This document shows, in pieces, positions 49,410 to 55,053 of a stretch of 64,000 nucleotides of DNA. Source of the stretch: Promethearchaeota archaeon (GTDB taxonomy: Archaea; Asgardarchaeota; Lokiarchaeia; Sigyniarchaeales; SOKP01); NCBI GenBank assembly GCA_011364925.1, contig RDOA01000006.1:1-64000 (forward strand). Reading direction: 5' to 3'. The position numbers were made by a program, and so were the translations under genes. How positions within the stretch are numbered: the stretch's first letter is position 1; each line of letters begins with the position of its first letter. Under the pieces are notes generated by a model. The model saw only the letters and a program-made list of their open reading frames with translations, was not told where the DNA came from and did no database searches.

Positions 49410-49847
49410 ATGATCGACGAAGAAGACGACGAGGAAGTTTTAAAGAAAAAGTGGTCTTTGAAGACTATTCTAAAAAATCTTGTTTTAATTGGCTTGATTG
49501 TTATTGGTATAGCATTTATGTATATCGGTGGACCCGATCCAACAATGAATCTTATTATTGGTTTTACATTCATTTGTTTAGGAGTTTCAATCATTCAAAT
49601 GAAAAAACCCCCGAAAGATCCAGTAAGACAGACATTAACAATATTGAAATGCAATAATTGTGGATCGATTGAGGTAAAGAACTACGAAGAAGGAGATTTT
49701 GTATTTAAATCAAAGGGAGTTTGCACCAAGTGCGCTGGATCTCTGGAAGTAATTCAGATTTATAGTGTCAAATTAAAGAAAGCTAAAGATAAGGGTAAAA
49801 AACTAGAGAAAGACAAAGAAACCTTGAAACAGACTATAAAGATTTAA
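49410..49847 (+). CDS. Conserved archaeal-type protein with 2 TM helices and a zinc ribbon
   Basis: Two TM helices followed by CNNC...EEGDFVFK...CTKC. Confidence 0.75.
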   Translation: MIDEEDDEEVLKKKWSLKTILKNLVLIGLIVIGIAFMYIGGPDPTMNLIIGFTFICLGVSIIQMKKPPKDPVRQTLTILKCNNCGSIEVKNYEEGDFVFKSKGVCTKCAGSLEVIQIYSVKLKKAKDKGKKLEKDKETLKQTIKI

Positions 49848-49874
49848 ATTTTATAATGGTTAGGTGTTTCTCTA

Positions 49875-50321
49875 ATTTTAAACAAAATAGGGATGGGCGG
49901 AACTTTTGATCATCTCCATGATGGGCATAAGTATTTATTAAGAACAGCTTTAAAATTATCGAATTTCGTTGAGATTGGGTTAACATCCCAAGAATTACTA
50001 AAAAATAAAAAAGCTTCTTCTAAACTCGAAGATTATGATACAAGAAAAGCGAATTTAAAGGCGTTTATTAGTTCTTTTACTGACATAAACAGAATTAACA
50101 TCGTAGAGATTAAGGATTGGGACGATATGGCCAGATATTCTCAAGATCCTGATTATGAGGGATTAATTTTAAGTCAAGAAACATATTTAAATGCCGTTAA
50201 ATTGAACGAGCTTAGAGAAGAGAAAGGTCTTGCTCCACTTATTTTGATTGTAATTCCTCTTCTAAAAGATGAAAATAACAAGATAATTAACTCAACGGCT
50301 ATTAGAGAAAAATTAGAGTAG
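49875..50321 (+). CDS. coaD: Phosphopantetheine adenylyltransferase (archaeal/eukaryotic type); probable ATT start at 49875
   Basis: GGTFDHLHDGH (HIGH), SQET, N..R..KGL and NSTAIR motifs. The beta-strand before GGTFD (ILNKIGM) requires a start upstream of ATG 49893; an AGGTG SD precedes the ATT. Confidence 0.88.
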   Translation: MLNKIGMGGTFDHLHDGHKYLLRTALKLSNFVEIGLTSQELLKNKKASSKLEDYDTRKANLKAFISSFTDINRINIVEIKDWDDMARYSQDPDYEGLILSQETYLNAVKLNELREEKGLAPLILIVIPLLKDENNKIINSTAIREKLE

Positions 50322-50387
50322 GAAAATTTTTTAGTGAAGATTACTAAACTACTATTGTAATTAATGAATACTTGAGATGAGAAAATT

Positions 50388-50477
50388 TTGAAAAGTCATA
50401 GAGATATTTTATCTATCAAGGACAATTTCAATCAAGTATCATTTTTCTTCAAATTCTTTATTTTGCCAAGGGAATAA
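50388..50477 (+). CDS. Putative Phe-rich leader peptide MKSHRDILSIKDNFNQVSFFFKFFILPRE (29 aa) upstream of pheS-pheT-pheA
   Basis: TTG start 7 nt after an SD-like GAGATGA; five Phe codons within six positions (50442-50459); the last codons overlap the 5' arm of a 10-bp inverted repeat. Confidence 0.5.
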   Translation: MKSHRDILSIKDNFNQVSFFFKFFILPRE

Positions 50478-50506
50478 CAATCTGATCGTAAATTTTTTCC
50501 CTTGGC
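50465..50506 (+). promoter_or_regulatory. Hairpin GCCAAGGGAA-N22-TTCCCTTGGC, candidate attenuator structure
   Basis: Perfect 10-bp GC-rich inverted repeat in AT-rich intergenic DNA, with a T6 tract at 50493-50498 entering the 3' arm. Confidence 0.55.
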
Positions 50507-50682
50507 TGCTGATATTTAGTTGAATATTCTCTTTTAAAGAAAATTACTGGTTTATTCAACTGTTTTGTATTGTTCTAATTCATGAAAGAATAAATTAAAA
50601 CGATATGCTCCACGAAAGATTTAAAAAGGTTAGAGATTTAGAAAAAATATAACGAAAAGCAAATAATTTTTGATTTTTAGAT

Positions 50683-52218
50683 ATGACAATCAAATTAAAG
50701 AAACAAGTAATAGAAATTCTCAGTGTACTTAAGAAAAAGAAAACTGAACAGATTGCATCATTATTAGCAAATGAGTTGAATATAGATTATATTGTTCTTA
50801 TGGCAGCTGTCAACGATCTAATTGAATACGATTTGGGAGGCTTTAAAGAAGAAGAAATAAATCAGATATCTTTAAACGATGAAGGACGCAAATATTTGGA
50901 GGAGGGATTACCCGAAAATCAATTATTAGAAATAATGAGGGTTTCTAATGCTAAGGAGATTAGCATGGAAGACTTACTAAGTAAATCTAAGTTAGATAAG
51001 CACATTTTTTATATCGGACTTTCAAACATGAGAAAAAATCGTTGGATTGCCCAAAGTAAAGCAACAGGAGAAAATAAGATATTTTTAGTAACTGAAAAAT
51101 TTCCAGAAACGGATGTTGAAAAATTTTTAAAGTCGTTTAAAGCGCAACCCACCCGTGATTATTCAAAATTATCAAAAAGTGAATTAATACAATATGATCT
51201 CTTAAATAAAAGAAAATTGTTTACGAAACAAAACAAAACGCAGCGTTCAATCTTTCTTACTGACAAGGGTAAATCAATTAAAATGTCTGATATAAAAGAA
51301 TTGAAGTACATTAGTAAAATTACATCTGAAATGCTCAGTTCTGGTACTTGGAGGAATTACGATTTAAAACCTTTTGATGTGTCTAAGTCAGGTCCTACTT
51401 TAAAAGCAGGGAAAATTCACCCATTAATTAGACTTATCAACGAAATTAGAGAAGTTTTCATTTCAATGGGTTTTACCGAAATAAGAGGTCCCATTGTAGA
51501 AAGCGCATTCTTTAATTTTGATGCACTGTTTCAACCACAGGATCATCCTGCCAGGGAATTACAGGACACATTTTATCTTAACAATCCTAAATTTGCAAAA
51601 TTACCTGAAAAAGATCGGGTACTGGCTGTTAAAGCAACTCACGAAAATGGTGGAGATTCTAAGTCGCTTGGTTGGAGATACCAATGGGATGAGAATATTG
51701 CTAAGCAAACAGTATTAAGAACGCATACAACAGCAACAACCATGAGACGATTAGCACAATTTTATAGAACTAATGATAAAACTCCTGTAAAAGTTTTTTG
51801 CATAGATAGAGTTTTTAGAAATGAGAAATTAGATAAATCCCATTTAGCAGAGTTTACTCAAATAGAAGGCATTGTTATTGATGAGAATGTTAATTTGAGC
51901 GATTTGATTGGCTTACTTTCAGAATTTTACAGGAAAATAGGATTTAAAAAGATTATCACGCGTCCTGGATTTTTTCCATATACCGAACCAAGCATGGAAG
52001 TTTCAGTTTATTATGATAAGTTAGGTGAGTGGTTAGAGATGGGAGGATCAGGAATTTTCAGACCAGAAGTCACATATCCTTGGGGCATCAAGGATCCTAC
52101 TAGAGTTTTAGCTTGGGGTCAAGGCCTAGAACGTATTGCGATGTTATACTACGACCGGCAAGATATGAGAGATTTATATATTAATCCAATAAAGTGGTTA
52201 CGGCAGCAACCATATTAA
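50683..52218 (+). CDS. pheS: Phenylalanine--tRNA ligase alpha subunit (archaeal type)
   Basis: N-terminal wHTH extension; GKIHP, FNFDALFQPQDHPARELQDTF, LRTHTT, RVFRNE, FFPYTEPS and GLER motifs. Confidence 0.97.
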   Translation: MTIKLKKQVIEILSVLKKKKTEQIASLLANELNIDYIVLMAAVNDLIEYDLGGFKEEEINQISLNDEGRKYLEEGLPENQLLEIMRVSNAKEISMEDLLSKSKLDKHIFYIGLSNMRKNRWIAQSKATGENKIFLVTEKFPETDVEKFLKSFKAQPTRDYSKLSKSELIQYDLLNKRKLFTKQNKTQRSIFLTDKGKSIKMSDIKELKYISKITSEMLSSGTWRNYDLKPFDVSKSGPTLKAGKIHPLIRLINEIREVFISMGFTEIRGPIVESAFFNFDALFQPQDHPARELQDTFYLNNPKFAKLPEKDRVLAVKATHENGGDSKSLGWRYQWDENIAKQTVLRTHTTATTMRRLAQFYRTNDKTPVKVFCIDRVFRNEKLDKSHLAEFTQIEGIVIDENVNLSDLIGLLSEFYRKIGFKKIITRPGFFPYTEPSMEVSVYYDKLGEWLEMGGSGIFRPEVTYPWGIKDPTRVLAWGQGLERIAMLYYDRQDMRDLYINPIKWLRQQPY

Positions 52219-52235
52219 ATTGAGGTGAAAATATA

Positions 52236-53912
52236 ATACCAACCCTTGAATTAAAAATTGATAGGTTAGAAAGATTAGTTGGAAAGAATCTAAATATAGA
52301 TGAGTTAGAATACGACTTGCAATGGATTGGATTAGATCTAGAGGATATTAATAGAGAAGAACAGACGATTAAAATTGAATATAATCCTAATAGACCAGAT
52401 TTCTCATCACCAGAGGGAATAGCAAGGGCTTTGCAGGGTTATTATGAAGTTAAATTAGGTGTTCCAACATTTGACATACAACTAGGTGAAGTCGTACTTA
52501 ATGTAGATCCTAGTGTTAAAAAAGTAAGACCATATATAGTATGCGGGATCATCCGTAATATAGATTTAGACGAAGAAGAAGTTGCTACTCTAATGAATAT
52601 CCAAGAACACCTTCACTGGGCTGTTGGAAGGGACAGAAAAAAGGTCGCAATTGGTGTACATGATTTAGATAAGGTCAAACCGCCCTATAGGTATACTGCT
52701 GTAAAACCAGATTCAGTGAGTTTTACTCCTTTACATGGAGATGGATATCCAATGAATTTAGAAGAGATTCTACTCCTTCATGATAAAGGTATAGAATATG
52801 CTCACATTTTAGAGGGAAAAGAGGTGTACCCCATCATTTTTGATGATAATAACGAAGTGCTATCCTTTCCACCAGTTATTAACGGAGTTCTTACAACTGT
52901 TACTGATGAAACTAAAAATTTGTTCTTAGATTTGACCGGGACTGATTTTAATGCAGTGAATCTTGCATTAAACATTTTGTCCACTACTTTATCAGACATG
53001 GGGGCTAAAATCGAAAGTGTTACAGTAAATTATGAAGGAGAAAAAGAGATCGTAACTCCTAATTTAGATTCTACTAAGTGGCAAGTTGAGATTGACTTTA
53101 TAAATAGTTACCTTGGTTTAAAGTTAACTCCATCTGATATGATAAAGTGCTTTCAGAAAGTTCGGATCGATGCTAAAGAATCTAAGAGAAAAGGCTTTTT
53201 GGACATATATATACCTGCTTTTCGTGGAGATATTATGCATCCCGTCGATCTAACTGAGGAAGTTGCCATTGGATACGGTTATTTTAATATTCCAAAAACA
53301 ATCAGAGAGGGATGTATAGGAGAATACCATCCAGTTCAAGTCTTTTCGGACAAAATACGAACAATTATGATTGGAGCAGGTTATCTAGAAGTTATTAATT
53401 TCATTTTATCTAGCTCTGAAAAACAATATACTTTAATGAGCCAAAAATTCAACGAATCAAAGCTGATTCAGATTGCAAATCCAGTTTCAAAAGAATATAA
53501 TACAACTAGAACAACAATTTTACCTAATTTAATGGATACAATACGTTTTAATAGGTCCGAAGAAAAACCAATTAGGATTTTTGAAGTTGGAGATGTTGTA
53601 GTTCTAGCGCCTAAAGAAGAAACTGGAGCTAAGCGCGAAATTCACCTTTCAGCAGTATCTTATCATGAGGACGCGGACTTTACTGAAATTAGATCAACTT
53701 TAGATTTTATTATGACTGCGCTCGGATTATATAATGAATTTGAGGTAAAAGTTGGGAGTAATCTTAGCTATATTAATGGACGTTATGGCGATATTTATTT
53801 TAAAGGCACCAAGATTGGAGAAATCGGAGAAATCAATCCAGAGGTTCTGTTAAATTTTAAATTAGAATTTCCAGTTGCGGCATTAGAATTAAATTTAGAA
53901 AAAGTTCTGTAA
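52236..53912 (+). CDS. pheT: Phenylalanine--tRNA ligase beta subunit; probable ATA start at 52236
   Basis: NRPDF, SFPPVIN, R.DIMH.VD..EEVAIGYGY and IFEVG motifs. The frame is open upstream of TTG 52317 as ATA-CCA-ACC-CTT (MPTL..., the typical archaeal PheT start), 7 nt after GAGGTGA. Confidence 0.95.
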   Translation: MPTLELKIDRLERLVGKNLNIDELEYDLQWIGLDLEDINREEQTIKIEYNPNRPDFSSPEGIARALQGYYEVKLGVPTFDIQLGEVVLNVDPSVKKVRPYIVCGIIRNIDLDEEEVATLMNIQEHLHWAVGRDRKKVAIGVHDLDKVKPPYRYTAVKPDSVSFTPLHGDGYPMNLEEILLLHDKGIEYAHILEGKEVYPIIFDDNNEVLSFPPVINGVLTTVTDETKNLFLDLTGTDFNAVNLALNILSTTLSDMGAKIESVTVNYEGEKEIVTPNLDSTKWQVEIDFINSYLGLKLTPSDMIKCFQKVRIDAKESKRKGFLDIYIPAFRGDIMHPVDLTEEVAIGYGYFNIPKTIREGCIGEYHPVQVFSDKIRTIMIGAGYLEVINFILSSSEKQYTLMSQKFNESKLIQIANPVSKEYNTTRTTILPNLMDTIRFNRSEEKPIRIFEVGDVVVLAPKEETGAKREIHLSAVSYHEDADFTEIRSTLDFIMTALGLYNEFEVKVGSNLSYINGRYGDIYFKGTKIGEIGEINPEVLLNFKLEFPVAALELNLEKVL

Positions 53913-53952
53913 CATTTTCAGAATAGTTTAAAAAAATCATATTGGGAGTAAA

Positions 53953-55053
53953 ATGAGCGAAGAAGAAAAAGTAATTAAAGAATTGGAAGAGTTAAGAAAG
54001 AATATTGATGACATTGATGATACTATTGTTGATCTTCTTAATAAAAGAGCTAATGCGGTGATTAAAATTGGAAATCTCAAGAAATCTTTGAATTTAGAAA
54101 TTTTTCAACCAGCAAGAGAAGAAGAGATAAAGAACAGGCTGGTTAATAAGTCAACTATTTTCAAAAAAAGTAGTATCGAGGCAATTTGGAAAGAAATAAT
54201 TAGTGCAAGCAAATTGATTCAAGGAACTATTACAAAAGTAGGGTTTCTTGGTCCTAATGGCACTTTCACACATCAAGCGGCTCTTGATTACTTTGCTAAG
54301 GCGGGAACTCAATTTGTTCCCTTTGATTCAATGCAAGAAATCTTCGATAATATAGATAAAAAAACACTTGACTTTGGGATTGTTCCTATTGAGAATAGTC
54401 TTCAGGGAACAGTACGAGAAACTCTAGATTTGCTAATCGAAAATGATTTATTTATTTATGGTGAAATTGAGGTAAGAGTGATCCAAAATTTAATTTCGTT
54501 AAAGGCTACAGAAATATCGGATATCAAACATATTTTTTCTCACCCTCAAGCTTTTGCACAGACAAGAATTTGGTTAAAATCAAATTTGCCAACAGCTAAA
54601 ATTATAGAGGTACACTCAACTGCTGAAGCTGTTCGTAGAGTTAGAAAGTTGGAGGATAAATCTTATGCGGCTATTGGGACTGAATTTGCTGCTGAAATTT
54701 ATGAGTTAAAAATTTTAAGCTCAAATATCGAGGACGAGAAGTCTAATTATACGAGATTCTTAATAATATCTAAAAATGAAAATCCATTGAAAACCGAACA
54801 TATGAAAACATCGATTGTTTTTGTTACAAAACATATCCCTGGAGCTCTATATTGGGTATTAAAAATATTCTCTGATGCAGATATAAATTTATCAAAAATA
54901 GAATCGAGACCACGTAGAAAAGGAAAATGGGAATATATCTTCTTCATGGATTTTGAAGCCGATAAAGATAATCCTAAAGCGGTAAAAGCCCTTGAGCTAA
55001 TGAAAGCAAATGTGATTTGGCATAAAGTTCTTGGATCTTTCCCTATTAAATAA
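53953..55053 (+). CDS. pheA: Chorismate mutase / prephenate dehydratase (P-protein)
   Basis: N-terminal CM domain (LRKNIDDID...R), then LGPNGTF, PIENS.QG, SHPQA, NYTRF and ACT-domain IESRP. Confidence 0.95.
   Translation: MSEEEKVIKELEELRKNIDDIDDTIVDLLNKRANAVIKIGNLKKSLNLEIFQPAREEEIKNRLVNKSTIFKKSSIEAIWKEIISASKLIQGTITKVGFLGPNGTFTHQAALDYFAKAGTQFVPFDSMQEIFDNIDKKTLDFGIVPIENSLQGTVRETLDLLIENDLFIYGEIEVRVIQNLISLKATEISDIKHIFSHPQAFAQTRIWLKSNLPTAKIIEVHSTAEAVRRVRKLEDKSYAAIGTEFAAEIYELKILSSNIEDEKSNYTRFLIISKNENPLKTEHMKTSIVFVTKHIPGALYWVLKIFSDADINLSKIESRPRRKGKWEYIFFMDFEADKDNPKAVKALELMKANVIWHKVLGSFPIK

Follow-up and report, generated by a model that had tools for sequence, protein, structure and literature searches.

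The 64,000-nt window analyzed here (positions 1 to 64,000 of contig RDOA01000006.1 from a Promethearchaeota archaeon, to which the positions below refer) contains a 361-bp gap (50322-50682) between a coaD-like gene and pheS, and this gap harbors a leader unit of ~160 nt built around a short phenylalanine-rich upstream open reading frame (uORF). Our comparative analysis suggests that this leader is probably a phenylalanine sensor that is read by ribosomes and controls pheS-pheT-pheA in cis. That a ribosome gauges the Phe supply at the leader appears very likely from the pattern of sequence conservation, while the route by which the signal would reach pheS, including the termination site and the direction of the output, is what we infer from the arrangement of the elements. 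A Phe-sensing leader had already been proposed in an initial annotation of this DNA. The idea itself gained support from a conserved open uORF, synonymous Phe codons, a covarying hairpin and a family-wide link to pheS-pheT-pheA, but the switch by which the leader had been supposed to operate did not hold (see below).

The individual elements named in that annotation are all present in the sequence. On the plus strand, a Shine-Dalgarno (SD)-like GAGATGA (50374-50380) is located 7 nt upstream of a uORF of 29 codons (50388-50477; TTG start, TAA stop), whose codons 19-24 (50442-50459) read F F F K F F. Four of the six Phe codons in this uORF are TTC, as had been pointed out, although the share of TTC genome-wide is only 26%. 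The cluster occupies the single-stranded linker between two RNA helices, P1 and P2. The 5′ strand of P1 (50363-50375, consisting of 50363-50367 and 50370-50375 in the minimum free energy fold) pairs with a 3′ strand at 50432-50443, which corresponds to codons 15-19 and thereby overlaps the first of the clustered Phe codons, so that P1 surrounds the SD-like site along with the uORF from its start codon through codon 15. P2 is the perfect 10-bp hairpin of the initial annotation. Its 5′ arm (50465-50474) is formed by the last codons of the uORF, with the stop codon directly following (50475-50477) and the last Phe codon ending 5 nt upstream, and its 3′ arm is found at 50497-50506. A T6 tract (50491-50496) is located at the 3′ end of the P2 loop, a position that is not conserved. 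The geometry of the SD-like site is matched elsewhere in the window by GAGGTGA, 4 or 7 nt ahead of an ATA codon before pheT, and by AGGTG with an 8-nt spacing before coaD; genome-wide, SD-like words peak at -20 to -10 relative to genes.

In this one genome alone the Phe cluster is not beyond chance, as at least five Phe in seven codons occur in 39 out of 12,728 short intergenic ORFs (33% GC genome), and its significance rests on conservation. The initial annotation had suggested extracting the pheS upstream regions of relatives in search of a conserved cluster with synonymous variation and a covarying hairpin, and both are indeed found there. We aligned the regions upstream of pheS in 30 congeneric species (PheS 71-100% identical). 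The uORF frame is open in 27 out of 28 genus loci, with the start codon (TTG or ATG) at a fixed alignment column and a length that is usually 29 codons. In the variable N-terminal part (45 nt, compared over 58 distinct leaders), where the mean pairwise nucleotide identity is 38%, the uORF frame contains a single stop codon versus 107 and 73 in the two other frames. At the other end of the uORF, the stop stays fixed in place while changing its type (47 TAA, 4 TGA and 3 TAG). By these comparative data the uORF is under selection to remain open, and the combination of stop depletion, fixed start column, stop codon switching and an SD-like site constitutes a strong comparative signal of its translation.

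The sole exception among the 28 loci (G009, locus L013) carries a ~78-nt deletion that takes out the 5′ strand of P1, the uORF start and a promoter-like motif preceding them (described below). In the same locus the first Phe codon of the cluster, TTT in the relatives, has become GGT, and the Leu codon before P2 has become TGG, as it has in locus L015. The leader of L013 may be in decay, or else the sequence may reflect an assembly fault.

The Phe codons themselves were examined in the 58 distinct leaders by counting positions back from the P2 arm. Codon -3 is Phe in all 58, invariably TTT, and codon -4 in 48 out of 58, which makes the two Phe codons closest to P2 the best kept. Codon -5 is never Phe (0/58), followed upstream by codons -6 (47/58), -7 (30/58) and -8 (42/58). 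Excluding the invariant last TTT, positions -4, -6, -7 and -8 together show TTT or TTC in ~167 cases as compared to ~10 with TTA or TTG. This pyrimidine bias at the third base stands in genomes whose third positions are mostly A and T. The other conserved residues of the peptide (Q, x and S before the cluster; P, R and E after it) are encoded by the 3′ strand of P1 and the 5′ arm of P2, respectively, as read by eye from the alignments. Because these helix strands account for them, only the Phe codons need a coding explanation. TTC is favored at two of the Phe positions and TTT at three, and this pattern, together with the intervening codon that is never Phe, may serve to limit U runs that could terminate the archaeal polymerase inside the uORF.

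Both helices covary. RNAalifold, applied to the 340-nt leader region of the genus alignment, returned P2 as the sole structure, which contains a single compensatory pair; G-U intermediates are seen as well, and through them the GGG/CCC of this hairpin has repeatedly become GAG/CUC. For P1, one pair in the same alignment is AU in 11 and GC in 10 sequences. Over 79 rows from the whole family, all 11 pairs of P1 have changed on both sides somewhere (one of them being AU in 20, GC in 20 and UA in 16), and one pair of P2 is GC in 50, GU in 17 and AU in 10. In these rows 90% of the P1 and P2 cells can pair, versus 34-55% when the partners are slid, and none of 500 shuffles scored as high as the observed helices. 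The 79-row alignment was fitted to a covariance model and hence favors structure, but the same switches are seen in a MAFFT alignment. There are 65 G-U cells in the helices versus 23 A-C cells, which fits an RNA read from the plus strand. A strand call from single-sequence folding was abandoned, since both strands fold well, and the assignment was based instead on the ORF and on the G-U and A-C counts.

With respect to distribution, a covariance model of the leader unit gave one match per genome in 102 out of 135 genomes of the family, representing 11 of its 13 genera. Among the fetched family loci with a readable downstream gene, other genera included, the leader precedes pheS in 38 out of 38, with the PheS start 170-200 nt after P2 (100 nt in one case). 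Taken together, these data link the leader to pheS-pheT-pheA across the whole family. Stricter filters missed the divergent leaders of genera g18 and g22. In the g18 variant (L159-L161), a short ORF ending in F-F-I stops just before a 9-bp P2-like hairpin with a U5 behind it; a canonical start codon is missing from two of the three ORFs. Beyond the family, no Phe leader was found before pheS in the 19 readable of 20 genomes from other families of the same order and class, by a regular-expression search and a scan for a uORF combined with a fold (the remaining record, L050, began inside pheS). Within the genome the hairpin and the peptide motif are single-copy, which ruled out a repeat or mobile element.

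The same genome carries two sibling leaders. The first, which came to light when the entire genome was searched for short ORFs with single-residue runs, is a Trp-rich uORF of 16 codons, three of them Trp (G000 contig C34, 3768-3818, minus strand; L051/L057), located 161 nt upstream of a TrpB2-type gene (trpB2). It is conserved in 29 genus loci with two to four Trp codons and has a hairpin over its stop that shows compensatory changes, while a T5 tract and further hairpins are found ahead of the trpB2 start. The second is a Leu-rich uORF of 31 codons before leuS (G000 contig C56, 2194-2289, plus strand; L162/L163), with nine Leu among its last 17 codons. In 18 loci from four genera, the Leu-rich ORF is retained along with a 12-13-bp hairpin adjacent to its stop; a U-rich run in the loop of this hairpin is conserved, as is a TATA-like element between the hairpin and leuS. 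That the same genome holds three cognate pairs of leader and gene is very unlikely to be explained by chance or by a generic hydrophobic peptide. A common constraint is the spacing to the 5′ arm of the hairpin, with 0-8 nt separating it from the last regulatory codon and the stop falling within ~6 nt of it. A Met/Thr-rich ORF of 60 codons (G000 contig C87, 9781-9963; L230), 84 nt before a gene for an LCM-type methyltransferase, was dropped as a further leader, the downstream methyltransferase having no clear cognate link to it.

Two conserved promoter-like elements frame the leader. The first (50322-50334, plus strand), composed of an A-run, T6 and AG, begins right after the coaD stop and is kept in all genera. 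It is found ~28 nt upstream of P1 in every genus, also where the upstream gene is not coaD, and a similar motif precedes a tRNA-Ala gene. We infer that it comprises the B recognition element (BRE) and TATA box of the leader itself, which would place the RNA start just before P1, near 50355-50360. Alternatively, its T6 could terminate coaD. No promoter consensus was derived from tRNA upstream regions, as only 11 tRNAs were detected. The second element is a block of ~45 nt (50610-50653, plus strand) at about -63 from the pheS start, which includes a BRE/TATA-like sequence (50613-50627), an AT-rich proximal element and, ~28 nt downstream of the TATA, a TATA(A/G)C. Present in every genus including g18, this block is the best-conserved stretch of the gap and would appear to be a complete core promoter for pheS. 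The initial annotation had mentioned a BRE/TATA-like sequence in this place, as a caveat, and the caveat is thus strongly borne out. About 25 nt upstream of this BRE/TATA is a conserved box (50571-50597; no strand assigned), which is conserved across genera in sequence and not as a helix, and which may be a binding site for a regulator. A third helix at this location, plausible in some of the sequences, was dropped after RNAalifold gave no structure and the stem failed in genus g28. Another conserved block of the genus alignment lies just upstream of the uORF start, and the P2 loop is variable.

One more conserved feature is an unpaired tail immediately following P2 (50507-50513, plus strand; all genera), which reads UGCUGAU here and has the consensus CUGCGGA, in which the C is contributed by the final position of the P2 3′ arm (50506). 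No pairing partner for it was apparent by eye (no scan was run), and it could be a putative site of protein binding or cleavage.

How could a ribosome in the leader affect pheS? Under a shortage of charged tRNA-Phe, a ribosome held up on the final Phe codons would cover the 5′ arm of P2, the hairpin would not fold, and the polymerase would continue through the spacer into pheS. With plentiful Phe, the ribosome would finish the uORF and depart, P2 would fold, and the transcript would end at a nearby oligo-U, either intrinsically or via aCPSF1/FttA. In Archaea aCPSF1 is known to act in termination with U-tracts (PMC8716108). The pheS-proximal promoter would in such a case provide basal expression, to which read-through may only add. 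This differs from the switch of the initial annotation, by which a ribosome reaching the stop codon was to open the hairpin and expose the U6 for termination; that version was not sustained, with U6 missing from this spot in many relatives and no antiterminator found.

Several observations weigh against the proposed cis-acting switch as well. Conservation of the promoter-like block that separates the leader from pheS exceeds that of the leader, and pheS may therefore be transcribed independently of the latter. No conserved antiterminator pairing could be identified, as RNAalifold gives P2 only and nothing downstream of it. The alternatives that were drawn by hand (P1 with the strands of P2, the tail after P2 with the 5′ region of pheS, and the conserved box with the 5′ strand of P1) were dropped as they amount to 4-5 bp without covariation. 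P2 and T6 in the window do not make a canonical terminator, the T6 preceding the 3′ arm, and a scan of 49800-50900 for bacterial-type terminators returned none. Of the 58 leaders, 24 have fewer than five T near P2. In favor of the model, T runs of at least five near the P2 3′ arm, either just before it (as here) or ~7 nt after it, are found in the other 34 versus a background of 28%, and oligo-T is enriched genome-wide just after stop codons, as expected for termination in Archaea. Against it, finally, a terminating ribosome likewise shields the 5′ arm of P2, which means that the switch would have to depend on timing; masking of the hairpin is within reach of no Phe codons but its two closest ones, and the occlusion model gives no role to the upstream Phe codons or to P1.

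In an alternative reading, the same sensor would have another output, being a self-contained unit in tandem with the pheS promoter that provides no pheS mRNA and acts instead through transcriptional interference, with regulated read-through occluding that promoter, or through a small RNA or peptide in trans. We consider this unlikely, if still the best of the alternatives. The leader's own promoter-like motif and the T run near its end are consistent with such a unit, as are the promoter-like block and upstream box of pheS and the parallel position of the Leu leader ahead of the TATA-like element of leuS. There is also a bacterial precedent, with a trp attenuator RNA and its peptide acting in trans (PMC7968998, PMC7298713). 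On the other hand, pheS and its native 5′ region would remain intact in any read-through RNA, so that interference would not amount to simple repression, and the occurrence of three different leaders each beside its cognate gene argues for action in cis.

The hypothesis of a micropeptide gene, in which the hydrophobic Phe-rich product of 29 residues is itself functional and P2 is a mere terminator or stabilizer, appears improbable. It could draw on the maintained open frame, the conserved C-terminus, the promoter-like motif and the T run. However, the N-terminal two thirds of the product are nearly free to evolve (as reflected in the low nucleotide identity given above), its conserved non-Phe residues coincide with covarying helices, and neither the cognate pairing with pheS nor the parallels of Trp with trpB2 and Leu with leuS would be explained. 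Less probable again is an arrest peptide that senses free phenylalanine in the ribosome tunnel while stalled at the stop codon, as in TnaC, where the ligand is tryptophan. The position of the stop within P2 and the last residues P-R-E are indeed conserved, but P-R-E is encoded by the 5′ arm of P2, where codon changes are matched in the 3′ arm (e.g. AGG to AGA with a compensating change), and the last residue varies between E, D and V. Conserved residues beyond those accounted for by RNA structure or regulatory codons, which would mark an arrest peptide of the TnaC or SecM type, were not found in the leaders, all conserved non-Phe residues being helix-encoded.

We give very little credence to the idea that the element goes untranslated, whether as a structured RNA, as a palindrome in the DNA to which a regulator binds, or as the terminator of coaD: P2 is an inverted repeat that matches no Rfam family and a T6 does follow the coaD stop, but stops are depleted in one frame only, the Phe codons switch synonymously, and the one-sided helix changes are mostly G-U. 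The last variant, which the initial annotation had listed as a potential refutation, is ruled out more directly by the location of the hairpin, 145 nt past the coaD stop, and by the persistence of the module and its promoter-like motif ahead of pheS in loci with another upstream gene. A C/D box small RNA was not supported either, the only match being snoR64 at 19 bits (E = 2), and the CUGA in the loop is not conserved.

The genes flanking the leader, all on the plus strand, were assigned by Pfam and NCBIfam matches, and those on its 3′ side are all Phe-related, as had been noted initially. They are pheS (50683-52218), encoding the phenylalanyl-tRNA synthetase alpha subunit (Pfam tRNA-synt_2d, 2e-87), pheT (52236-53912), encoding the beta subunit (Pfam B3_4, B5 and tRNA_synthFbeta), and a gene for a pheA-type chorismate mutase/prephenate dehydratase with an ACT domain (53953-55053; Pfam CM_2, PDT and ACT; NCBIfam NF008865). 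The pheT ORF was called from TTG 52317, the first canonical start, which is 27 codons downstream of a start region encoding I-I-P-T-L. The frame is open from 52224, and I-I-P-T-L is encoded directly behind a GAGGTGA (52222-52228), pointing to a near-cognate ATA at 52233 or 52236 as the probable start. The gap between pheS and pheT would then be ~17 nt, and intergenic gaps throughout pheS-pheT-pheA would be short. On the 5′ side, the coaD-like gene (49875-50321; Pfam CTP_transf_like, NCBIfam NF001985) encodes a pantetheine-phosphate adenylyltransferase. This gene is the upstream neighbor in most pheS loci, another gene taking its place in the remainder, and it is outside the leader module. In the stretch 49862-49895 it has no canonical start ahead of its GGTFD motif, the ORF having been called from ATG 49893; a probable start is ATT 49875, 8 nt after AGGTG, from which the product would read M-L-N-K-I-G-M-G-G-T-F-D. 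A tRNA search and an Rfam search of the gap between coaD and pheS returned nothing.

Leader-peptide attenuation is a textbook bacterial mechanism, which needs ribosomes that follow close behind the polymerase. According to a 2025 commentary (PMC13681488), there is little functional evidence of transcription-translation coupling in Archaea, and its extent is an open question. Our literature searches found no published leader-peptide attenuator from an archaeon. A broader proposal, on which we judge the arguments to be evenly balanced, is that one Promethearchaeia (Asgard) family runs a regulon of ribosome-read, self-promoted leader modules (at least Phe, Leu and Trp), each upstream of its target's own promoter, in which the stalled ribosome, rather than an antiterminator helix, would decide on the folding of the hairpin over the stop and on read-through. 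If true, Archaea would thereby have their first described system of amino-acid attenuation. The Phe, Trp and Leu leaders offer concrete, mutable sequences for testing whether archaeal ribosomes steer transcription, and the Asgard leaders also bear on the interplay with termination by oligo-U and aCPSF1 and on the tuning of aminoacyl-tRNA synthetase levels.

The closest counterparts are the leaders of pheM-pheST and pheL-pheA in E. coli, which are leader-peptide transcription attenuators (Rfam Phe_leader, RF01859). Shared with them are a short ORF rich in Phe codons that ends at an RNA hairpin before genes for phenylalanyl-tRNA synthetase or prephenate dehydratase, and the proposed reading of tRNA-Phe charging by a ribosome. 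As in a classical attenuator, five of six codons are Phe ahead of genes for charging and making this amino acid, with positions conserved in the 58 leaders. Unlike the E. coli systems, the present leader belongs to an archaeon and is shared by both gene sets, which form a single operon. Moreover, the alternative of antiterminator and terminator was not found here by RNAalifold, the U tract varies in place, and the leader has its own promoter-like motif plus a second conserved promoter-like block before pheS. In the region 49800-50900, the Rfam model Phe_leader gave no match even at E values up to 10, and the best matches to other Rfam families, at ~19 bits, were below thresholds.

The pyrBI attenuator of E. 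coli senses UTP through pausing of the polymerase and not an amino acid through hungry codons. It shares with the Phe leader a logic of direct occlusion, in which a ribosome on the leader ORF blocks the terminator hairpin without an antiterminator helix; the pyrBI ORF, however, runs through the hairpin, whereas the present one stops within it. Leaders outside the classical enterobacterial design are represented also by the mycobacterial short ORFs with polycysteine, which are reported to be leaderless attenuators for the cognate pathway (bioRxiv 10.1101/834739). These have in common with our leaders a run of codons for one amino acid. They differ in their bacterial host, in being leaderless and in forming the first gene of the polycistronic mRNA to which they belong, whereas the Phe leader has an SD-like site and two covarying helices and is separated from its target gene by a promoter-like block. 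In Sinorhizobium, the trpL attenuator yields a small RNA, rnTrpL, and a peptide, peTrpL (PMC7968998, PMC7298713), showing that an attenuator unit can form a short transcript of its own, as it would if the Phe leader were a unit in tandem with the pheS promoter. Overall, the occurrence of tandem promoter-like elements without an antiterminator suggests that the mechanism of the archaeal leader is not a copy of the bacterial one.

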